Origin: an uncultured Actinomycetota bacterium
GTDB taxonomy: Bacteria; Actinomycetota; Acidimicrobiia; Spongiisociales; UBA4744
Assembly: GCA_963717135.1 (NCBI GenBank)
Contig: CAVQVN010000009.1
Location: 632,269 to 696,268, forward strand
Length of the DNA: 64,000 nt
Reading direction: 5' to 3'
The notes under the pieces are model-generated. The model saw only the letters and a list, made by a program, of their open reading frames with translations, ran no database searches and had not been told where the DNA came from. Positions 152-56,384 of the stretch are shown in pieces (the stretch's first letter is position 1; the number at the start of each line of letters is the position of its first letter). Position numbers and translations under genes: made by a program.

Positions 152-226
152 TGGTAGCCCCGACGGGATTCGAACCCGCGTTACCGGCTTGAAAGGCCGG
201 CGTCCTAGGCCGCTGGACGACGGGGC
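152..226 (-). tRNA. tRNA-Glu (anticodon UUC)
   Basis: The reverse complement folds as a canonical cloverleaf: GCCCCGT acceptor, TTCGAATCC T-loop, anticodon loop CTTTCAA, 3' CCA encoded. It is a near match to bacterial tRNA-Glu (TCGTCnAGnGGCCTAGGAC…CCTTTCA…GGTTCGAATCC). Confidence 0.9.
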
Positions 227-269
227 CAGCACCGGACGGCATGGTAGCGCAGGGTGGGCCTTCCCCGAA

Positions 270-44774: not shown

Positions 44775-45410
44775 TCAGTTACCCAGGAAGGGGGCGGGCG
44801 TCAAACGGGGTACCACCAGGTCCGCCCCGCTCAGGTCCTCGAGGCCGAATTGCCCTCGTCGGACGGCGATCACGGTCATACCAGCGGCGCGGGCCGCGGC
44901 AATACCGGTGGGAGCATCCTCGACGGCTATACAGGTCTCCGGTTCCACACTCATTCCGGCGGCGGCGGCGAGAAAGAGATCGGGGGCGGGCTTGCCGGCG
45001 GCGACTTCGTCGCCCGCCACCACGAACTCGAAGTAGGCCTCCAGTCCGGTGGCGGCCAGCGATCGATCCAGACGCTCCCGGGGGCTCGATGATGCCACCG
45101 CCATCGTGGCTCCCCTGATCTGGAGAGCATCCAGCGTGTCGGCGGCATCCTCGAAGGCCAAGAGATGCTGATCGAACAATCTGAATGTCACGTCCGACAG
45201 CTCGTGCCAGAAGCTGCCGTGGTCGGGCAGGTCGGCCCGTCTAGAGAAGTGGTCGTGCGCGTCCCTATCGGTACGACCGGTGAGCAGGGCAATGTCCTCT
45301 TCGGTCAGCGTTATTCCGTACCGAACCAGGATCTGGCGCCAGGCCCTCCAGGCCAGCTGTTCGGAGTCTACGAGAACTCCGTCGCAATCGAACACGATCG
45401 GGCGCATCAA
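44775..45410 (-). CDS. HAD-superfamily hydrolase, subfamily IA (β-phosphoglucomutase-like)
   Basis: FDCDGVLVDSE motif I. Motifs II and III present. Confidence 0.8.
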   Translation of the reverse strand: MMRPIVFDCDGVLVDSEQLAWRAWRQILVRYGITLTEEDIALLTGRTDRDAHDHFSRRADLPDHGSFWHELSDVTFRLFDQHLLAFEDAADTLDALQIRGATMAVASSSPRERLDRSLAATGLEAYFEFVVAGDEVAAGKPAPDLFLAAAAGMSVEPETCIAVEDAPTGIAAARAAGMTVIAVRRGQFGLEDLSGADLVVPRLTPAPFLGN

Positions 45411-46855
45411 CCGGCGGCCTTCTCCTGCAGAATGGTCGAAACGACCTTGGGGTCGGCCTTCCCGGCCGAGATCCGCATTACTTGTCCGACCAGATAGCCG
45501 ATGACTTTGGCGTCCCCCTCTTTGAGGCGCTGGTACTCCTCCGGATGATCGTCTAGTACCCGGTCGATCTGAGTTTTCAACACGCCGGCGTCCGAGATCT
45601 GAACGAGATCGCGTGCCTCAGCGACTTGCGCCGGGCTCCCCTCGCCGGAGAGGACTCCAACCAGGACCTGTTTGGCCGCCGTCGCCGACAGGTCACCCCC
45701 CGCGTATAACCCGGCCAGCTCGCTGAGGTGCCGGCCGGTCAGGGCGGTATCGGCCAGGGACACCGACTCTCGCCTGAGGAAAGCGGTGACTTCGCCCGTC
45801 AACCAATTGGCGATCGTCTGGGGATCGGCACCGGTGGCGACGGCGTCTTCCAACAATGCGGTCAGGGCCGTTCCTCCCGCCACCAACACGCTGATGGAGG
45901 CCGGATCGAGGTTGAGATCCCGGTATCGAGCGCGCCGGGCGGCGGGCAGTTCCGGCAAACCTTCCCGGATCTCCTCACGCCAGGGGTTGGTCACCTCGAT
46001 GGGCACCAGATCGGGTTCCGGGAAGTACCGATAGTCAGAACTCTCTTCCTTGGACCGCATGCTGTCGGTGACCCCGGCCGCCTCATCCCAATGGCGAGTC
46101 TCTTGGGCAATCGGTGAACCGGCTCTGAGCGCGGCCGTCTGCCGATCTATCTCGTATCCCAAAGCCCGCTCGAGCGACCGAAACGAGTTCATGTTCTTGA
46201 CCTCGACCTTGGTCCCGAGTTGGTCGGAACCGACCGGACGCAACGAAACGTTGGCATCGAACCGCATGCTGCCTTCTTCGAGCTTGGCATCGGATACTCC
46301 CAGGGCCAGCACGATCGCTTGCAGTTCCTGGGCGAACGCCCGGGCTTGGCCGGGAGTGGACAGGTCGGGCTCGGTGACGATCTCGACCAGAGGGATTCCG
46401 GAACGGTTGAAGTCGAGGAGCGAGTGGTCGGCATCCTGGATCCGGCCGCTACCGCCGACGTGAATCATCTTGCCGGTGTCTTCTTCCATGTGCACCCGAT
46501 TGATCCGTACCCGGAAGGGTCCACCGTCGGCCTCGATCTCGAGGGTCCCTCCCGAACAGACCGGCACGTCGTACTGGGAGATCTGATAGTTCTTCGGTTG
46601 GTCTGCATAGAAATAGTTCTTGCGGTGGAACTGGGAAAGGGCGGCGATCTGGCAATCGAGAGCCAGACCGATGGCGACGATCGACTCAATGGCCTTCTGG
46701 TTCAAGACCGGCAGTGCTCCCGGCAAGCCCAGACACACCGGACAGACGTTGGTGTTGGGGTCTGCTCCAAAGCGGGCGGGACACCCACAGAAGATCTTGG
46801 AGTTGGTCGCCAGCTCAACATGGGTTTCGATGCCGATCACGGCCTCAAAGTCCAC
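45407..46855 (-). CDS. gatB: Asp-tRNA(Asn)/Glu-tRNA(Gln) amidotransferase subunit B
   Basis: GatB blocks (VIGIETHVEL, …). Start proposed at GTG 46855 (VDFEAVIG…). The listed ATG 46909 lies inside gatA. Confidence 0.9.
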   Translation of the reverse strand: MDFEAVIGIETHVELATNSKIFCGCPARFGADPNTNVCPVCLGLPGALPVLNQKAIESIVAIGLALDCQIAALSQFHRKNYFYADQPKNYQISQYDVPVCSGGTLEIEADGGPFRVRINRVHMEEDTGKMIHVGGSGRIQDADHSLLDFNRSGIPLVEIVTEPDLSTPGQARAFAQELQAIVLALGVSDAKLEEGSMRFDANVSLRPVGSDQLGTKVEVKNMNSFRSLERALGYEIDRQTAALRAGSPIAQETRHWDEAAGVTDSMRSKEESSDYRYFPEPDLVPIEVTNPWREEIREGLPELPAARRARYRDLNLDPASISVLVAGGTALTALLEDAVATGADPQTIANWLTGEVTAFLRRESVSLADTALTGRHLSELAGLYAGGDLSATAAKQVLVGVLSGEGSPAQVAEARDLVQISDAGVLKTQIDRVLDDHPEEYQRLKEGDAKVIGYLVGQVMRISAGKADPKVVSTILQEKAAG

Positions 46856-48326
46856 GGTCGACCTCCACCATCGGGGGTCGCCGGTCGTTCCAACCGGACA
46901 CCCGCTCAACCTCCGCCGCCACCCGGAGAAGCACCTCTTCTCCCAGGGCCGGCGCCATGACTTGAAAACCGATCGGCAGACCGGCCGTATCGAGGCCCAC
47001 CGGGACGGAGATCCCCGGGGCGCCTGCCAGATTGGACGGAATCGTGCAGACGTCGACCAGGTACATCGACAGAGGATCCTCGGTGCGCGAGCCGAATTCG
47101 AAAGCGGTCATGGGACTGGTGGGCGAAACGAGCACGTCCACCCCCTCATACGCTTTGGTGAAGTCGTTGATGACCATGGTCCGCACCTTCTGAGCCTGCC
47201 CGTAGAACGCGTCGTAGTAGCCCGCCGACAAGGCATAAGTGCCGAGCAACACCCGCCTGGTCACCTCCGGACCAAACCCTTCGGCTCGGGTCCTGGCGGT
47301 CATTTCCTCCACGGTGGCTCCGTCCACCCGCAATCCGTAGCGGACGCCGTCAAAGCGAGCCAGGTTGGCCGAGCATTCCGCCGGGGCGATCAGGTAATAG
47401 GCCGAGAGGGCAAACTCCATTGAGGGGAGCGACACTTCACCGACGACCGCTCCCGCCTCTTCCAGGGAGTCGACCACCGTGCGAAACGTGGCGAGTACGT
47501 CGGGGCTGATACCTTCACCGGCTAATTGGGTGACCACCCCGACCCGCAGCCCGGCCACTCCTCGGCGTAGTGAGGAGCGATATTCGGGATACTCGCCCCG
47601 GTAGGAGGTGGCATCGAGAGGATCGTGTCCGGCGATCACCTCGAGCGTGGTGACGGCGTCTTCCACCGTCCGGGTTATCGGTCCGATCTGGTCGAGGCTC
47701 GACGCGAAGGCGATCAATCCGTATCGAGAAACCAACCCGTAAGTCGGTTTCATCCCGACCACCCCGCACAGCGAGGCCGGCTGCCGAATCGAACCTCCGG
47801 TGTCGGAGCCCAGCGCCAGTAACGCCGAACCGGCTGCCACCGCCGCGGCCGAACCCCCCGAGGATCCTCCGGGCACCCTCCCGGTGTCCCACGGATTGGC
47901 CGAGGGACCGTATCCGGAGTTCTCCGTCGAAGACCCCATCGCAAACTCATCGAGGTTGGTCTTGCCGATGATCACGGCTCCGGCCTTCTTCAGGGAGGCG
48001 ACTGCCGTGGCGTCGTAGGGGGGCACGTACCCGGCGAGGATTTGCGATCCGGCCGTCGTCTCTACCCCGGTGGTGACCATGTTGTCTTTGATGGCGACGG
48101 GCAGTCCATGGAGCGGACCCACTTCATCCCCGCGGGCCAGCACCTCGTCGGCCAGGGCCGCCGCCGCGAAGGCGCCCTCCCGGTCAATCGTCAAATAGGC
48201 ATGGAGCTCGGCTTCGGTGAGCGCCGCTCGATCGAGAGTAGCCTGGAGCAACTCACGAGCGCTCAACTCCCCGGACCGGAGAGAAGCTGCTGCCTCGGCC
48301 AGCGTGAGGTCGGCCGGTGAGTTCAC
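46845..48326 (-). CDS. gatA: Glutamyl-tRNA(Gln) amidotransferase subunit A
   Basis: 493 aa. Amidase signature GGSSGGSAAAVAAG. Confidence 0.95.
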   Translation of the reverse strand: MNSPADLTLAEAAASLRSGELSARELLQATLDRAALTEAELHAYLTIDREGAFAAAALADEVLARGDEVGPLHGLPVAIKDNMVTTGVETTAGSQILAGYVPPYDATAVASLKKAGAVIIGKTNLDEFAMGSSTENSGYGPSANPWDTGRVPGGSSGGSAAAVAAGSALLALGSDTGGSIRQPASLCGVVGMKPTYGLVSRYGLIAFASSLDQIGPITRTVEDAVTTLEVIAGHDPLDATSYRGEYPEYRSSLRRGVAGLRVGVVTQLAGEGISPDVLATFRTVVDSLEEAGAVVGEVSLPSMEFALSAYYLIAPAECSANLARFDGVRYGLRVDGATVEEMTARTRAEGFGPEVTRRVLLGTYALSAGYYDAFYGQAQKVRTMVINDFTKAYEGVDVLVSPTSPMTAFEFGSRTEDPLSMYLVDVCTIPSNLAGAPGISVPVGLDTAGLPIGFQVMAPALGEEVLLRVAAEVERVSGWNDRRPPMVEVDRGL

Positions 48327-48613
48327 TCCCCCTCCAACGTCGGTGGAACGCGGAAATAACCGTCCTCGGCATCCGGTGCCTGCGATAGAGCAATGTCCCG
48401 ATCGAGCGACGGAATGACTTGATCCGGCCTGAATGAATTGACCATCGGCAGGGGATGCGACGTCGGCTCAACCCCCTCAGTCGGCAGTCGCTGGATGAGG
48501 GCGGCGTGCTCCAGGATCCCCTCCAATTGGGTTCCATAGTGTTCGAGTTCCTCAGCGGACAACTCGATGCGGGCCAGACGCGCCACATAGGCGATGTCGA
48601 TCTCGATAGCCAT
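48323..48613 (-). CDS. gatC: Glutamyl-tRNA(Gln) amidotransferase subunit C
   Basis: Start ATG 48613 (MAIEIDIAYVARLARIELS…). About 96 aa. Coupled to gatA. Confidence 0.85.
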   Translation of the reverse strand: MAIEIDIAYVARLARIELSAEELEHYGTQLEGILEHAALIQRLPTEGVEPTSHPLPMVNSFRPDQVIPSLDRDIALSQAPDAEDGYFRVPPTLEGE

Positions 48614-48627
48614 GCGACCGATTGTAG

Positions 48628-48999
48628 GTGCGGCCCGCATCAACCCTCGACCCACCTTGCGCTCTGCGCGCCGCGATCCTGAGGCATAATCGCCTCCTTG
48701 TGCATCGCCCGTCCCTCGGAGTCATCTCTCTCATCTTGATCGTTGGTGGCGCGGTCCTCATGGCCCGGCCTCCCAACGGGGATCCTTATCTCGGCGCCGT
48801 GTCGGTCCGGGCCGGCCTGGTACTGGGTGCCCTTTGGCTGGCTCTTCCCAACATCCGGCGGGCACCGCTCTGGCTGCTGTACGCGGTCGGTGTGCTGGCC
48901 GTGGTGCTCATCCTTCGACCCCGCCTGCTTCTCTACTCGCTACCGGTCGCAGCCGTTGTCGCGTTCCTGGGAGCCACCTCAAAGAAGCAACGCAATTAG
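48628..48999 (+). CDS. Hypothetical small membrane protein
   Basis: Three hydrophobic segments. Start unresolved (ATG 48628, a GTG near 48700, or ATG 48763). No RBS seen. Confidence 0.3.
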   Translation: MRPASTLDPPCALRAAILRHNRLLVHRPSLGVISLILIVGGAVLMARPPNGDPYLGAVSVRAGLVLGALWLALPNIRRAPLWLLYAVGVLAVVLILRPRLLLYSLPVAAVVAFLGATSKKQRN

Positions 49000-49047
49000 C
49001 GGGAAGCTTAAGGGTTGTGGCTTGATCCTCGATGCCCGTCGGGTCCG

Positions 49048-49850
49048 GGAGGCTCCACCGTCTGGCCGGGTGGGTGTTCTTTTGGATCGAGGGAACGATC
49101 CAAACTTCGCGGCCGGGCTGTTCGTGAGCCTCTCCCGCCGGCGGGAGAGGCGGGCCGCTGATAGTCCCCCTGCTAGGGGGGAAAGTACCGTCGCCGGTAG
49201 GCGAGGGTAGGGGGTCAGGCGGCGGAGCGGAGAGGGTGACTCTTCTCGGATAGTGGACGGGGGACCGCGGATAGCTGCTGGCTGCTTGATGGTTGTTGCT
49301 TGATGCTTGTTGGTCTTCTCTGGTCGGGGAGGCTCCACCGTCTGGTCGGATGGGTGTTCTTTTGCATCGAGGGAACGAGCGCCCGCCGCCGGTTGCTTCG
49401 GCCTCTCCCGCCGGCGGGAGAGGCGCGCCGCTGATAGTCCCCCTGCTAGGGGGAAAGTACCGTCGCCGGTAGGCGAGGGTAGGGGGTCAGGCGGCGGAGC
49501 GGAGAGGGTGACTCTTCTCGGACAGCGGACCGCGGACAGCTGTTTGTTGCTTGATGCTTTTTACTTGTTGGTCTTCTCTGCTCTGGAAGGTTTCGCCGTC
49601 TCGTCGGATGGGTGTTCTTTCACATCGAGGGAACAATCCAACTCGGTGGTCCGGACGGTCGAGAACCTCTCCCGCCGGCGGAAGAGGCGCGCCGCTGATA
49701 GTCCCCCTGCCAGGGGGAAGGTACCGTCGCCGATAGGCGAGGGTAGGGGGTCAGGCGGCGGTGCGGAGAGGGTGGTTATTCTCGGACCGCAAACCGCGGA
49801 TAGCTGCTGTTTGTTGTGGGTTGCTGTGGCTTGTTGGGGGTTTTCTTGTC
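49048..49850. repeat. Three tandem copies of a ~250-280-bp GC-rich unit (units begin ~49048, ~49328, ~49585), each carrying the nested palindromes cctctcccgccggcgggagagg and ccccctgc(t/c)aggggg
   Basis: Direct comparison of the three blocks: long identical runs (…ccgctgatagtccccctgctagggggaaagtaccgtcgccggtaggcgagggtagggggtcaggcggcgg…). Not coding by inspection. Confidence 0.8.
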
Positions 49851-49874
49851 ACACCCGGACGGTATGTTCAGGTT

Positions 49875-50995
49875 ATGGAAACGCTCGATATGGGCTCGGT
49901 CACCACCGACCAGCTCGAACAAGTACTCCTAGCGGGAGAAGCCCAAGTGGCTCGAATAAGAGCCACCCAAATGCGGTTACTAGCCGAGCTGGACCGTCGG
50001 CAGGTCCCCATCTCCGACGGGGCCCGCACTATGGCCGAGTGGGTGGCCGCCCGCCTGGATGTGACCCCTGAAACCGCTCAGAAGCTCACCCAAACCGCCG
50101 TCCGTCTCATCGACCAGCCCTCTCTGGCGGAAGACCTCGAGGGCGGTCGGGTTTCCTTTGATCGGATAGTTGAAGAGTCCCGCCTGGTTTCCTCGGGGGC
50201 TTCTTCTGAGCTGGTAGCCCAGTCCCGCGGTTGGGATCTGGTCGGGATGCGGCGGATGGTGGCCCGCCACCAACCGATCAGCCGCTCAGGCGAACAAGAC
50301 CTGTTCTCGGGTCGGTTCCTCTCCATCCAACCCACCTTGGATCAAACCTCCTACAAACTATGGGGACAGTTCCCCGGGATCGACGGCCAACTCATCGAAC
50401 AAGCCCTCACCACCCGAGCCGACCAATACCCGCCCCTCCCCAACGGCCGGCGGTGTGCCCGAACCCAACGCCAAGCCGACGCGCTGGTCTCCATCGCCCA
50501 AGACTCCCTCGACCAAACCCCCACCGCCAGCCCCCACGTCAGCCCCGCTGGTGTCGATCTTCCTCGACGCCCACCAAGCCGCTACTTCTAACGGGGAAAC
50601 CGGAGCCACTATCGCTACCGGACCCCGGAGTAGGGCCGCTCACCTTGGAACAGATCCTCTGCGACGGTCAAGTCGAAATCCTTATGACCTCCCCTAATGG
50701 CAACCCCCTCACGGTCGGACCGACCGCCCGCACCATCCCCCCCAAACTGAGAAGATTCATCCTCCACCGCGACGGGGGTATGTGCACCATCGCCGGGTGC
50801 CGGTCCCGCTACCGGCTCCAACCCCACCACATCACCCCCCGCAGCCAAGGCGGAACCCACCACCCCTCAAACCTCACCACCCTCTGCTGGTACCACCATC
50901 ATGTGGTCATCCACCGCCACGGCCACCAAATCGACCCCCACTCCCCACCCCAACGACGACGCTTCCTCAAACCCCAAACCCGCCCACCACCCTGA
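49875..50995 (+). pseudogene. DUF222-HNH endonuclease (13E12-repeat-like family) with two closely spaced frameshifts
   Basis: The DUF222 N-part is in frame 0 (METLDMGSVTTDQLEQVLLAGEAQVARIRA… to ~50565). A short stretch (…GETGATIATGP…) is in a second frame. The HNH part (GPLTLEQILCDGQVE…CTIAGCRSRYRLQPHHITPRSQGGTHHPSNLTTLCWYHHHVVIH) is in the third frame, ending at 50995. Confidence 0.7.
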
Positions 50996-51131
50996 GCTGC
51001 ATGCCAGCAGCTTCAGCCTCCACATCCTTCACCGACAAACGACCAACCAAGAAACCGGGCCGCAGGCAACTTCGACGTCGGCTCAGCGCCGGCCTTAGCC
51101 GCGTTCGACGAATCGCTACGAGGCGAAACGG

Positions 51132-51515
51132 CTAGATCCCGTTGGCGATGACACCACAACAGATGGCGATTGCCAACGAAACGGGACCCCAGATACGTTC
51201 GATCTTGGATCGTGAGGCGAAGTTCCCAAGAGCGCCGATGGTGAACAACCCGGCCAAGATCCACATCACTGTTTTGCCGGTCCCGGGCAACCATTCGGCC
51301 GCGATCAAATCCGACGAAACGAGCACAAAAAGGATGACCAGCGGATATACCAAGACACCCGCCAGGCCACTGGAAATCCGAAGCCGGTCGGGTAGCACGC
51401 CCTCATGTTGGCCACCCCAAGCCGCTTTCCCTAATGGAGCGCCGAGTGATAGCGCTACCTGAAACACCGCTACCACTGCGAGCAATACGACCGCGACGAT
51501 CGCTGCAACTTCCAT
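51132..51515 (-). CDS. Hypothetical membrane protein (4 TM)
   Basis: 127 aa, strongly hydrophobic. No family recognised. Confidence 0.4.
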   Translation of the reverse strand: MEVAAIVAVVLLAVVAVFQVALSLGAPLGKAAWGGQHEGVLPDRLRISSGLAGVLVYPLVILFVLVSSDLIAAEWLPGTGKTVMWILAGLFTIGALGNFASRSKIERIWGPVSLAIAICCGVIANGI

Positions 51516-53013: not shown

Positions 53014-54981
53014 GTGAAGCTCGTATTTGCCGCCCACTGCCATCAACCCCTCGGCAATATCGACGAAGTGGTCAAAGACGCATGCGATCGCGCGTATTTA
53101 CCCTTTCTCGAAGTCCTGGCCGCCCATCCGGCCATACGGGTCAATCTGCATTACTCGGGTTCGCTGCTCGAGTGGCTCGTCGAGCATCGACCGGAAGTTC
53201 TCGAGGTTCTGACCTCCCGGGGCGATCAAGTGGAGTGGATGAGCGGTGGGTTCTACGAGCCCATTCTCCCTTCGATCCCTCCCGAAGACGCCGCCGCCCA
53301 GATTGCGTTGCTCTCCGGGTTCATTCAGGATCGGTTCGGGCAGAATCCCCGGGGCGCCTGGCTCGCCGAACGGGTCTGGGATCCGAGCCTCTCATCGCTC
53401 CTCAACGATTCCGGGATTGAATACACCATCCTCGACGATTACGCCTTTCTACTCGCCGGGTACTTGCCAGACAGTCTGACCGGGAGCTACATCACAGATC
53501 ATCTGGGCAAGACGCTGACCATCTTCCCCATCGCCCAGGACCTTCGGTATGCGATTCCCGGAGCCGACCCCGAAGACGTTCTGGCCCTCCTCCGTGACCG
53601 TCACAACGATGATCCCCAGACGCTTGCGGTCATCGCCGACGATGGAGTGAGATTCGGGTTGTGGCCGGACAGCTACGAGCGGGTCTATCCGCCGGGTGGC
53701 TGGCTAGACGAATTCTTCACTCTGGTGGAGAGCGCCGATTGGCTGCAGATCACCACCTTCGCTCGGTACCTCGATGAGTACCCGGCGAGAAGCCGGGTGG
53801 CCCTACCGCCGGCCAGCTATCGGGAAATGAGCGAGTGGTCGATGCCGGCGGAAACAGCGCAGGCGATGATCCCAACGGACCCGGCACACGACCGGAACCC
53901 GAATTGGGTGGGCATAGAGGCCTTCATGCGAGGAGGTTGGTGGCCCAACTTCACGATCGAATATCCGGAAGCCGGAACCCTGTATCGGAAAATGCTTCGA
54001 GTCTCCAGTCACGTCGCGGCGAGCAAGGGACCGGCCGAAGCGCACACCGAAGTGCTCAAAGCCCAGGGCAACGACCCGTTCTGGCACGGCGTACTCGGGG
54101 GTTTGTACTCTCCCCATCTCCGCGCTGAAACCAATCGCCACCTCATCACCGCTCAAACGCTGATCGACGGCCACCACCATCGAGGCCGCTCATGGGTCTA
54201 TTTGCGCCGCATTGACTGGGATGCCGACGGCCGGGAGGAGATCGAGGTCGAAATCCCCGACCAGTCCTGGGTCTTAGACCCCGCCGAAGGAGGATCTCTC
54301 CTCTACTTCGACGACAAACCATCCCGCTGGTCGATCAGCGATGTGGTTGCTCGCCGTTATGAGCCCTACCACGCCGACCTGCCCGAGCCGCCAATCTACG
54401 ACCGCCACCCTCGCCGCTGGTTGACAGATCATCTTCTCCCGACCGTTGCCACCGTCGAGTCATTCGCCGATGTCTCCTATGTGGAGCTTCTGCCCCTCCC
54501 GGCAACCGAATACGTGACTCAGGAAACCACCGAAGGTCGAGGATCTGCCCGGATCGCGATGAGCGCTCTTGGCGGCAAGATCCTCAAGACGATTGATGCC
54601 GAGGACCGGGAGATGCGGATCGGCTACCGGGTATCCGACATACTGGCCGGACGTTTCGGACCGGAGATACCGGTTTCCGTATGGGAGGACGCCGGGCATA
54701 TCAGGGTCGACGGGGGCCCCTGGCAGCAGGTTGATCAACCGCTGGCCCTGGCCGGGCACCGTTTCCGTTTCCGCCATAGCGGAATCAAGACCTCGATCGT
54801 GGTCGTGCTGCGCCAGCCGGGTGAGCTGTTCTCTATTCCAATCCGAACCGTGACCAGAGGCGACGAAGGTTCGGAATCAATCCTGCAGGGAATTGTTCTG
54901 TGGCCCCACTGGTCGACGAGCGGGTATGGCAATTATGAGATGACCGTCGAGATCGTCGAGATGGCGGTTGAGCCCTCATGA
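53014..54981 (+). CDS. Glycoside hydrolase family 57 protein (α-glucan branching enzyme / amylase type)
   Basis: 655 aa. N-terminal AAHCHQPLGN (GH57 HxHQP motif) and a catalytic Glu/Asp region. 4-nt overlap with glgA. Confidence 0.85.
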   Translation: MKLVFAAHCHQPLGNIDEVVKDACDRAYLPFLEVLAAHPAIRVNLHYSGSLLEWLVEHRPEVLEVLTSRGDQVEWMSGGFYEPILPSIPPEDAAAQIALLSGFIQDRFGQNPRGAWLAERVWDPSLSSLLNDSGIEYTILDDYAFLLAGYLPDSLTGSYITDHLGKTLTIFPIAQDLRYAIPGADPEDVLALLRDRHNDDPQTLAVIADDGVRFGLWPDSYERVYPPGGWLDEFFTLVESADWLQITTFARYLDEYPARSRVALPPASYREMSEWSMPAETAQAMIPTDPAHDRNPNWVGIEAFMRGGWWPNFTIEYPEAGTLYRKMLRVSSHVAASKGPAEAHTEVLKAQGNDPFWHGVLGGLYSPHLRAETNRHLITAQTLIDGHHHRGRSWVYLRRIDWDADGREEIEVEIPDQSWVLDPAEGGSLLYFDDKPSRWSISDVVARRYEPYHADLPEPPIYDRHPRRWLTDHLLPTVATVESFADVSYVELLPLPATEYVTQETTEGRGSARIAMSALGGKILKTIDAEDREMRIGYRVSDILAGRFGPEIPVSVWEDAGHIRVDGGPWQQVDQPLALAGHRFRFRHSGIKTSIVVVLRQPGELFSIPIRTVTRGDEGSESILQGIVLWPHWSTSGYGNYEMTVEIVEMAVEPS

Positions 54982-56384
54982 AGCTTTTGATGGCAGCCGC
55001 GGAGTTTTCTCCCTTGGCCCGCACCGGCGGGATGGGAGAAGCAGTGGCGGGACTCGCCGCGGCTTTGGCTGATCAGGGCATTGAGGTCACAGTGGCCCTT
55101 CCCCGCTACCAGCATCTCCGCACAACCGGGGAACTCGACGACGGGCTGTCGATAGCCGCCTACCGCGCTCAACTGGCCGGCGTCGAGGTATTGCTCATCG
55201 ATGACGACGAGGCTTTCGATCGACCCGGCATCTACGGCCCGAAGCCCGGCACCGCCTATGGGGACGAGTGGTTTCGATGGGCTAGGTTCTCATCGGCCGT
55301 CGCCCGCCTGGCGGCCGATTTCGACCTCGTTCATCTTCACGACGGTCATGTCGGTCCGGTCGCCCTGCTCACCGACGTGCCGACGGTGCAAACGATTCAC
55401 AACGCTTCGTATCCACTGCTGGGCCCGCTGGCCGACGCCGCCGAAGAGCTCAACATCTCCTGGTCGGACCGGAGGTTGGGCGGTGCGCTCGAGTGGTACG
55501 GGCAAGCCAACTATCTCAAAGCCGGGATCGTCGGAGCCACCCGCGTCACGACGGTCAGTCCGACGTTCGCATCCCAGATCTCGGTTGATGACTCGGTCAC
55601 CGGCGGGTTGAGTGAGGTCATCAGGTGGCTCGAGCACCCGGTAGTCGGCATCGTGAACGGCATCGACACCAAGGCCTGGGATCCGAAGGGCGACCCGAGT
55701 CTGGCCGCTCCGTTTTCAGCCGGGAAGCTCAAACCTCGAGCCGAATCGCGCCACGCTCTGCTCGAGAAAGCCGGCCTCGATGATGGGTTCGTGACCGGCA
55801 ACGTGGGAAGAATGACCGAACAGAAGGGCCTTCACCTTATCGACGCGGACCTGAATCGCCTCGTGGAAGATGGCCTGCGAATGGTCCTCATCGGGAACGG
55901 CAATCTCGATGCGATGGTCGACGGTTGGGAACTGCGCCATGCGAGGGCCGTTCGCCACTTCGAATATTCCGAGGATTTGGCCCGCTTGTTGTTCGCCGGG
56001 GCCGACGCCTATTTCATGCCCTCCCAATTCGAGCCCTGCGGGATAGGTCAGCTCTACGCGATGCGCTACGGATGCCCGCCCCTCGCTCACCTCACCGGCG
56101 GCCTGGCAGACACAGTGGTCGATCTCGACGAACGGCCCGAGGAAGGAACCGGACTCGGGTTCCGCGGTTTTCTACCCGAAGAGGCGACCAAAACCATCCG
56201 TCGCGCCATGCGGATTCACCGAACCTCAAAGAAGGAGTGGAAGAAGCTGCAACGAAACGGAATGACTTCCGACTTCTCGTGGGATCATGCGGCTCGCCAA
56301 TACCTTCCGGTGTATGCGGCGGCTCTCGGGACTCCGATAGATCAGGCGGGGCTAAATCCTGTTTCTCCCCCATCCGACATTTGA
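54978..56384 (+). CDS. glgA: Glycogen synthase (GT5)
   Basis: 468 aa. AAEFSPLARTGGMGEAV (K/RTGGL-type motif) and a C-terminal GT-B domain. Confidence 0.9.
   Translation: MKLLMAAAEFSPLARTGGMGEAVAGLAAALADQGIEVTVALPRYQHLRTTGELDDGLSIAAYRAQLAGVEVLLIDDDEAFDRPGIYGPKPGTAYGDEWFRWARFSSAVARLAADFDLVHLHDGHVGPVALLTDVPTVQTIHNASYPLLGPLADAAEELNISWSDRRLGGALEWYGQANYLKAGIVGATRVTTVSPTFASQISVDDSVTGGLSEVIRWLEHPVVGIVNGIDTKAWDPKGDPSLAAPFSAGKLKPRAESRHALLEKAGLDDGFVTGNVGRMTEQKGLHLIDADLNRLVEDGLRMVLIGNGNLDAMVDGWELRHARAVRHFEYSEDLARLLFAGADAYFMPSQFEPCGIGQLYAMRYGCPPLAHLTGGLADTVVDLDERPEEGTGLGFRGFLPEEATKTIRRAMRIHRTSKKEWKKLQRNGMTSDFSWDHAARQYLPVYAAALGTPIDQAGLNPVSPPSDI

Follow-up and report, generated by a model that had tools for sequence, protein, structure and literature searches.

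Tandem structured modules with mirror-image purine tails upstream of a DUF222-HNH gene from an uncultured actinobacterium

Directly upstream of a DUF222-HNH ('13E12'-type) nuclease gene, in a 64-kb stretch of DNA from an uncultured Actinomycetota bacterium (the window, to which all plain coordinates refer), lies an array of three tandem repeat units. Here, we show that the modules making up this array are conserved and linked to HNH genes, and that they contain real hairpins and a purine tail that co-varies with one hairpin arm as its mirror image. The explanation that we tentatively favour is that a composite, non-coding cis element of the DUF222-HNH cassette in Acidimicrobiia-like bacteria is present here in tandem copies; it would act as DNA, fold when single-stranded and serve the adjacent nuclease gene in cis. 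Each unit combines two modules, A and B, and module B appears to have a variant of the class II intrastrand purine-motif triplex layout (pyrimidine arm, purine arm and mirror-image purine segment) of the BoxC/PIT/TMECO kind, with a long structured second loop. Intrastrand triplex repeats of this kind have been known for 25 years without an assigned function or partner protein, and the DUF222-HNH proteins are widespread in Actinobacteria and uncharacterised. The conserved physical link between a triplex motif and a nuclease gene, together with co-variation of the type expected for base triples, makes both questions testable, through binding or cutting of the folded strand by the nuclease, triplex formation and triplex-driven copy-number instability.

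Three tandem units in front of the HNH gene

Tandem Repeats Finder delimited a repeat at 49046-49809 (period 264, 2.8 copies, 84% matches, 6% indels, score 1009), and a repeat search, pairwise extension and MAFFT alignment resolved three head-to-tail units spanning 49039-49845. Their spacings are 280 and 258 bp, in agreement with the values of about 280 and 257 bp in a preliminary description of this DNA.

49039-49318, + strand: unit U1, consisting of module A, module B and a T/G-rich tail (Tandem Repeats Finder, repeat search, MAFFT, covariance model matches)
49319-49576, + strand: unit U2 (Tandem Repeats Finder, repeat search, MAFFT, covariance model matches)
49577-49845, + strand: unit U3, the most diverged unit, the tail of which merges into the promoter-like motif of the HNH gene (Tandem Repeats Finder, repeat search, MAFFT, covariance model match)

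The units are 80-85% identical to each other in pairwise comparison, their homology is recognisable up to near 49840, and their divergence is uneven, with 94-98% identity in the core of module B, 60-70% in the tail and 34-64% in the stretch of module A that we call a3. We consider the array to be non-coding because the lengths of the indels between units are not divisible by three (MAFFT) and because the open reading frames (ORFs) crossing it gave no Pfam match and showed no coding potential. CRISPR arrays consist of repeats of 20-48 bp with unique spacers of similar length, whereas the units are contiguous, spacer-less and 258-280 bp long, which bears out the earlier exclusion of CRISPR. The array matched no Rfam family, the HEARO and omega-RNA models included, in gathering mode, and an E-value search over 48900-49950 returned sub-threshold chance matches. 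The units likewise match no known insertion sequence (IS) end. Blastn of a unit against phage and plasmid collections gave zero matches, and the 22 loci found with an 18-mer from the unit in species-representative genomes were all chance matches of 18-20 nt.

At 49006-49029, just 5′ of U1, the sequence GGGTTGTGGCTTGATCC is similar to the U3 tail, GGGTTGCTGTGGCTTGTTGG. It may be a leftover of an additional unit or mark where the array originally began on its left side, right after the stop codon of the upstream ORF.

Linkage of the modules to HNH genes in relatives

We compared 80 metagenome loci and six loci from two assemblies (fetched HNH loci, labelled L followed by a number), using iterative nhmmer searches with a profile built from the three units as well as two covariance models, one for each module. 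Modules A and B were found directly upstream of, and on the same strand as, the closest HNH homologues (roughly 66-73% identity; L027-L032, L035, L038, L085, L023 and L106-L111), on other Acidimicrobiia-like contigs. At E < 0.01, the covariance model of module A matched only + strand sites upstream of HNH genes when both strands of 484 kb were searched, and within the 64-kb window neither model gave a match at E < 0.5 outside the array. Because homologous modules precede HNH genes in other contigs, the array is neither confined to one locus nor unconserved; the initial idea of a structured mini-satellite tied to the DUF222-HNH family is thus supported, while the suggested dispersal in the manner of REP elements or miniature inverted-repeat transposable elements (MITEs) found no evidence in the window.

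The locus L107 is orthologous to that of the window and contains gatB-gatA-gatC, a small ORF, a gap of 826 nt, the HNH gene and GH57. Its flanks are 70-75% identical and its HNH gene is 72% identical to their counterparts in the window, indicating that the HNH gene is an old resident of the gatCAB-GH57 site. The gap, which measures 873 nt in the window, is internally re-arranged: L107 carries about ten 67-nt A modules followed by one B module, compared with three copies of A plus B in the window. Furthermore, L109 contains about seven A modules and one B module, L106 two and one, and partial extra copies are present in L031, L032 and L035. Because the copy numbers of A and B differ independently in relatives, a point overlooked in the preliminary description, the 265-bp unit of the window is a composite of two modules that were duplicated together. 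The number and order of the modules have changed more quickly than the genes around them.

These comparisons bear on the possibility that the array is a selectively neutral local duplication of the HNH 5′ flank, with incidental hairpins, that is decaying along with a pseudogene. The two frameshifts in the adjoining HNH gene, the quick turnover of the array between orthologous loci, the lack of modules at some close HNH homologues and a pairwise unit identity of just 80-85% would all suit such a history. We nevertheless regard it as improbable: it does not predict the uneven divergence between the core of module B and the a3 stretch, nor a module architecture that is kept down to about 50% HNH identity with compensatory stems and co-varying mirror tails.

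In addition to the upstream modules, we observed single B-type modules downstream of HNH genes in either orientation (L059 2264-2337 (+), L032 ~4128 (+), L096 4487-4564 (+), L100 4191-4264 (-), L076 4236-4305 (-) and L051 3576-3651 (-)), mostly within a few hundred nt of the gene and about 1.4 kb away in L051, and some HNH genes are flanked by B modules on both sides. Upstream of more distant HNH homologues (about 50% identity), L049 (2520-2900) and L096 (2560-2900) carry arrays of two alternating module types, each with pyrimidine arm, purine arm and mirror segment and with other arm sequences; L096 also has long polypyrimidine tracts (CTCTCGTCCCCCCTGT repeats).

Paired stems and a mirror-image third segment

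Module B consists of two hairpins, P1 and P2, followed by a purine tail, with a second, smaller motif of the same layout nested in the loop of P2. The coordinates of these features in U2 and of their copies in U1 and U3 are as follows.

49402-49423, + strand: hairpin P1 with pyrimidine arm CCTCTCCC(G) and purine arm (C)GGGAGAGG, equivalent to the 22-bp palindrome noted beforehand; other copies at 49129-49150 and 49666-49687
49425-49497, + strand: hairpin P2 with strands GCGCCGCTG (49425-49433) and CAGGCGGCGG (49488-49497) around an insert of ~55 nt (covariance model alignment); other copies at 49152-49225 and 49689-49761
49438-49488, + strand: nested second motif of pyrimidine arm, purine arm, hairpin and mirror segment in the P2 loop, with TCCCCCTGCTAGGGGG, TACCGTCGCCGGTA and GGGTAGGGGGTC; other copies at 49165-49216 and 49702-49752
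49499-49510, + strand: purine tail GCGGAGAGGGTG (RH domain), 3′ of P2; other copies at 49227-49238 and 49763-49774

The 22-nt palindrome CCTCTCCCGCCGGCGGGAGAGG had been described as perfect in every unit; it is perfect in U1 and U2 and has one mismatch in U3, and no palindrome-like match of this length occurred in 100 shuffles. The other reported sub-features, namely a second hairpin TCCCCCTGC(T/C)AGGGGG (also CCCCCTGC(T/C)AGGGGG), an inverted repeat TACCGTCGCCG(G/A)TA, the G-run GGGTAGGGGGTC and T/G-rich linkers, occur in all three units, with U3 showing single mismatches in two sub-features, the palindrome counted. What had escaped attention is that the palindromes and the G-run together make up two nested motifs of pyrimidine arm, purine arm and mirror-image purine segment (class II, BoxC/PIT-like). 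The nested motif, which comprises the two other reported hairpins and the G-run, repeats the layout of P1, P2 and tail on a smaller scale, and such a small module stands alone in L082 (4455-4522).

A covariance model of P1 and P2 built from six relatives matched all three window units over its full length (38-47 bits) and placed the insert of ~55 nt in the loop of P2, which measures 3-4 nt in relatives. Across lineages, the P2 stem takes at least 9 different fully complementary sequences, for example CGCTGCC/GGCGGCG, CGCCAGC/GCTGGCG, GGCCAAGC/GCTTGGCC, CCCGACC/GGTCGGG, TCTCGCC/GGCGAGA, CAGTGAC/GTCGCTG and TCGAGCG/CGCTCG(G).

In the window, the purine tail CGGAGAGGG mirrors the P1 purine arm GGGAGAGGC perfectly, at 9/9 positions, and the tail changes along with the arm in relatives.

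Window, L107, L109, L035 and L059 (module at 2264): purine arm of P1 GGGAGAGGC, tail CGGAGAGGG
L106: purine arm of P1 GGGAGAGACGC, tail CGCAGAGAGGG
L059 (module at 918): purine arm of P1 GGGGGAGAC, tail CAGAGGGGG
L044 and L051: purine arm of P1 GGGGGAGG, tail GGAGGGGG
L082 and window insert (T replacing A): purine arm AGGGGGAAG, tail GTAGGGGGT

Among 29 non-redundant hairpins of a pyrimidine and a purine arm within 600 nt upstream of HNH genes, a perfect mirror of the purine arm was located 5-100 nt downstream in 10, compared with a perfect direct copy in 2 (Wilcoxon p = 0.0013). In the remaining parts of these loci, 1/113 such hairpins on the + strand and 3/141 on the - strand were followed by a perfect mirror, without bias. 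When the tails were shuffled among 22 modules, the mirror mismatches rose from 33 to 45.2 +/- 3.1 and none of 5000 shuffles reached 33, with the reservation that the modules share descent and represent roughly 4-6 distinct arm types, so that p-values from shuffling overstate their independence. The co-variation of arm and tail fits base triples rather than base pairs, as judged from these alignments. If this reading is true, the three-way co-variation of pyrimidine arm, purine arm and mirror tail would support a purine-motif intrastrand triplex on phylogenetic grounds.

Two variations of module B and its surroundings were also observed. In a subgroup of loci (L035 2872-2890, L030 ~1208-1240 and L028), P2 is replaced by GCGAGC(AAA)GCGAGC direct repeats and P1 and the mirror tail are retained. 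Moreover, at many loci, heptad-like direct repeats (GCGGATA / GGACAGC, 2-3 copies) are located between module B and the terminal hairpin with its T-run (e.g., L035 ~2930-2950; window 49248-49277).

Composition of the A modules

Module A consists of a G-rich linker (GGGTTGGGRG in L107 and L109), a hairpin a1 that varies in sequence, a conserved box YCTYTTGCAYCGARGGRA with the core TTGCAYCGA, and a hairpin a3. In the window, its parts are located as follows.

49338-49353, + strand: hairpin a1, 5′ of the box; other copies at 49058-49073 and 49596-49611
49356-49376, + strand: module A box GTTCTTTTGCATCGAGGGAAC, repeated about 10 times in L107 and about 7 times in L109; other copies at 49076-49096 and 49614-49634

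The position of a3 is taken in the window by a poorly conserved stretch of 25-33 nt 3′ of the box, the least conserved part of the unit. Across the 12 copies from L107 and L109 that align well, pairing of the a3 hairpin amounts to 86% in the proposed register and 14-58% in slid registers, and its compensatory variants include CAGCU/AGCUG, CAACU/AGUUG, CCGAU/AUCGG and CGGUU/GGUCG. RNAalifold found no consensus structure in a MAFFT alignment of 31 A modules because their hairpins are not positionally aligned. Two other readings of this module were rejected. Inspection by eye did not support a triplex motif, since the candidate pyrimidine arm pairs poorly and the co-variation falls at the wrong positions, and a function of the variable segment as a guide is unsupported, as the same position is occupied by the variable-sequence hairpin a3 in relatives.

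A conserved core motif between array and start codon

The last ~30 nt before the ATG of the HNH gene are occupied by a core motif that is conserved separately from the repeat and is preceded by a T-run, with a small hairpin and this T-run directly 5′ of it.

49846-49877, + strand: core motif TTGTCACACC-N-GGTATGTT-N6-ATG (regular expression match at 53/89 HNH loci)

The consensus TGTCAYA-N8-GATAYNNT-N6-ATG was found by regular expression at 53 of 89 HNH loci, down to about 50% protein identity, and the module-less HNH loci L026, L034, L037 and L039 keep just this proximal motif. The array had been reported to end 25 bp before the gene; it does adjoin the HNH gene, but the repeat homology stops near 49840 and the segment from 49846 onwards belongs to the core motif. 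We infer that the motif contains a TANNNT -10 element 6 nt 5′ of the ATG, i.e., that the HNH mRNA probably has a leaderless start, a reading that draws on general knowledge of actinobacterial promoters.

A cis-regulatory 5′ leader of the HNH mRNA would be another way to account for the array. Tandem attenuator- or riboswitch-like elements could pair CCUCUCC with either GGGAGAGG or GGAGAGGG, and the terminal hairpin with its U-run could gate read-through. The strand and position of the array match the gene, two purine segments could pair with the pyrimidine arm, and the hairpin with T-run lies 5′ of the gene. A competing Watson-Crick helix, however, needs a direct copy of the arm, and the tails fit a mirror (33 mismatches) far better than a direct copy (60 mismatches in the direct-repeat control). 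Moreover, the TANNNT element 6 nt before the ATG, with no Shine-Dalgarno sequence, points to a separate leaderless promoter downstream of the array, and the array has no Rfam match, making a leader very improbable.

A possible triple-helix DNA element or non-coding RNA

The BoxC/PIT/TMECO elements, known from E. coli and other bacteria, are G/C-rich repeats of the class II intrastrand purine-motif triplex type (Hoyne et al. 2000; Holder et al. 2015, PMC4666352). By definition, a class II strand carries a pyrimidine arm, a purine arm and, in antiparallel (mirror) orientation, a third segment of purines or G/T (Y-R-RH), which form G*G-C and A/T*A-T triplets. The E. coli element, the natural example known best, has the layout CCCTCNCCC-N3-6-GGGNGAGGG-N3-GGGNGAGGG (PMC4666352). 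In vitro, TMECO folds into a stable DNA triplex; no function has been assigned to it, and it is associated with rearranged or unstable loci and explicitly not found beside mobility genes; purine-motif triplexes are stated not to form in RNA (PMC4666352).

The same order of pyrimidine arm, purine arm and purine tail on one strand is present in all three window units and in at least 20 modules elsewhere, and the third domain is a mirror image in the window as well as in the modules of relatives. CCTCTCCC...GGGAGAGG...GGAGAGGG of module B is very similar to CCCTCNCCC...GGGNGAGGG...GGGNGAGGG, and in both cases a short loop separates the first two arms, the elements are intergenic and they are tied to locus instability. 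Loops are limited to 1-6 nt in the ITxF definition and to N3-6 and N3 in TMECO. The first loop of module B (4-6 nt) is within the limit, but the second connector, which holds P2, has 16-40 nt in relatives and reaches about 76 nt in the window. Module B was therefore classified as a variant rather than as a TMECO member. Module B further differs from TMECO in that a conserved hairpin (P2) occupies a second loop of 16-76 nt instead of 3 nt, the motifs can nest, they form tandem arrays combined with module A, the host is of an actinobacterial-type lineage and the modules cluster at DUF222-HNH genes, whereas TMECO is reported without an association with mobility or nuclease genes. A link between triplex repeats and a nuclease gene family was found neither in PMC4666352 nor in a literature search for 'DUF222', in which no title or abstract dealt with repeat arrays or RNAs beside DUF222 genes.

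In the proposed mechanism, the G-rich + strand would, in its single-stranded state, adopt these hairpins together with R*R-Y triple helices, either during replication or as the displaced non-template strand. Such folding may favour slippage or unequal recombination and hence copy-number instability, which could be why there are three copies of A plus B here and about ten of A with one of B at the orthologous locus. The array would act in cis, with the repeated A box as a putative binding platform for the ParB/KorB-like DNA-binding domain of the nuclease; alternatively, it might be a barrier that insulates the leaderless promoter of the HNH gene from upstream transcription. A more specific version, in which the B modules are selected DNA triple-helix elements that together with the A box make up a cis recognition or regulatory platform of 13E12-type nucleases, analogous to the partnership of REP with RAYT but with an HNH enzyme that has a ParB/KorB-like DNA-binding domain, seems to us rather unlikely. 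REP/BIME elements and RAYT (TnpA-REP) resemble the present case in that short structured extragenic repeats of variable copy number surround a nuclease-type gene in either orientation. Unlike in those systems, no HUH/Y1 transposase adjoins the array, no dispersed modules were seen in the window or in locus flanks away from HNH genes, and the modules are hairpin-plus-mirror motifs rather than simple palindromes.

Several observations weigh against a triplex-forming cis element, in addition to the shared descent of the modules. The motifs are low-complexity G/A and C/T tracts, for which alternative Watson-Crick registers between tail and pyrimidine arm are possible, and no characterised intrastrand triplex has a second loop of anything like this length. 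A stem proposed around the TTGCATCGA box showed no covariation, was no better than shuffles and was dropped. Moreover, modules are lacking at L026 (79% identity), L034, L037, L039 and many other HNH homologues, so the gene can do without the element. Finally, the G+T richness, the G.T/U wobbles, the 3′ hairpin with T-run and the co-orientation with the gene are equally compatible with a transcript.

This last point leads to the possibility, likewise rather unlikely in our estimate, of a + strand non-coding RNA that partners the nuclease. Such an RNA might bind and neutralise the HNH protein or guide it, with the modules as protein-binding units, in a manner reminiscent of type III toxin-antitoxin (TA) systems, and would be a new class of nuclease-associated RNA. 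At each locus, the array is immediately upstream of the gene and on the same strand, the module copy number varies from 1 to about 10, and the hairpins show compensatory changes. Furthermore, G.U pairs make up 100/466 of the predicted pairs on the + strand compared with 13/323 on the - strand, the A box can be read as unpaired between hairpins with a flanking stem that lacks covariation, a small hairpin with T-run directly precedes the core motif, and the + strand of the array is G- and T-rich (GC skew +0.19, AT skew -0.18). However, the G.U excess partly reflects base composition, and the co-variation of the mirror tail is predicted by a purine-motif triplex, which reportedly does not form in RNA (PMC4666352). 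Some B modules are located 3′ of HNH genes and point the opposite way (L100, L076 and L051), the internal linkers carry no recognisable promoter or TANNNT element, and no Rfam model matched. The minimum free energy z-scores of one unit (-2.6 and -3.4 for the two strands) are alike and therefore do not identify the functional strand.

Known RNA systems fit in part. The type III TA systems (ToxIN, CptIN and TenpIN) also combine tandem structured repeats of variable number, a hairpin with T-run and then a potentially toxic nuclease gene, but their repeats are near-identical and 34-40 nt long, their known toxins are endoribonucleases (ToxN/CptN/TenpN, AbiEii-like) and not HNH DNases, and the DUF222-HNH gene apparently has its own promoter. 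HEARO/omega-RNA with IscB, as well as the bridge RNA of IS110, share with the array a structured element of ~200-300 nt that is located 5′ of, and co-oriented with, a gene with a Cas9/IscB-like HNH domain. In contrast to these, the array has no HEARO match in Rfam, the protein combines DUF222 with HNH and lacks RuvC and PLMP, and no guide-like segment was demonstrated.

The DUF222-HNH gene and its neighbourhood

The array is located between the gatCAB genes and the HNH gene, in the gene order listed here.

45407-46909, - strand: gatB
46845-48326, - strand: gatA
about 48323-48655, - strand: gatC
48628-48999, + strand: small membrane-protein-like ORF, the stop codon of which abuts the array; syntenic with a 102-aa ORF in L107
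49039-49845, + strand: the repeat array
49875-50995, + strand: DUF222-HNH gene, ATG at 49875, frameshifts at about 50547 and 50628 (Pfam; alignment to homologues)
51132-51515, - strand: small ORF
53014-54981, + strand: GH57
54978-56384, + strand: glycogen-synthase-like gene

Pfam confirmed the neighbour as a DUF222-HNH gene. Its alignment to the closest homologue, P0001, requires two frameshift corrections near 50547 and 50628, which means either that the gene is a recent pseudogene, as it had been called with good reason, or that the frameshifts are assembly errors. The reconstructed protein is 89% identical to P0001 overall and 97% across the HNH half, and 84% identical to P0003. It has about 1000 homologues, mostly metagenomic and often several per contig. 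The only Pfam domains in the protein are DUF222 and HNH, and an NCBIfam match to IscB covers the HNH domain only and is far under the cut-off. No TA or defence family was assigned by PADLOC, which gave no meaningful match, or by NCBIfam, and Foldseek against the PDB returned no significant whole-protein match. The HNH alignment had zero matches to viral contigs, and tblastn against plasmids gave two distant, uninformative matches only.

The family is multi-copy, with four copies in one assembly, which brings up the idea that the units are remnants of mobile elements (MITE or IS ends) or recombination or attachment sites of the HNH cassette or a phage. Mycobacterial REP13E12 elements carry the same protein family (Pfam DUF222 and HNH, '13E12') and are likewise multi-copy per genome. 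Also consistent with mobility, the stretch from the B module through the stop codon is 86% identical between the paralogues L107 and L109, and some HNH genes have a B module on either side. On the other hand, neither terminal inverted repeats nor target duplications were observed, no transposase or integrase adjoins the array, and phage and plasmid matches are absent. Furthermore, the HNH copies occur in the same four chromosomal neighbourhoods across genomes: between AhpC and SmpB (L023/L106/L110), between gatCAB and GH57 (L107 and the window), after a sigma-70 gene (L108/L111) and beside sbcCD (L109/L028/L038/L032). Because these sites are shared and the copies have diverged about as much as their flanks, they are long-term residents rather than recent insertions, and mobile-element remnants are the least probable of the explanations considered here.

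Three minor observations concern the surroundings. An IS110-family transposase gene at L108 6649-7110, about 2.5 kb downstream of one HNH copy, is probably coincidental. The sole Rfam match in the window is a tRNA gene at 155-227 (- strand, 65.5 bits), which is unrelated to the array. The GC skew drops from +0.19 in the kilobase containing the array (49001-50000) to -0.28 in the next one with the HNH ORF (50001-51000), both extremes of the 1-kb profile of the window, and the C content of the HNH coding strand is unusually high relative to the remaining window.

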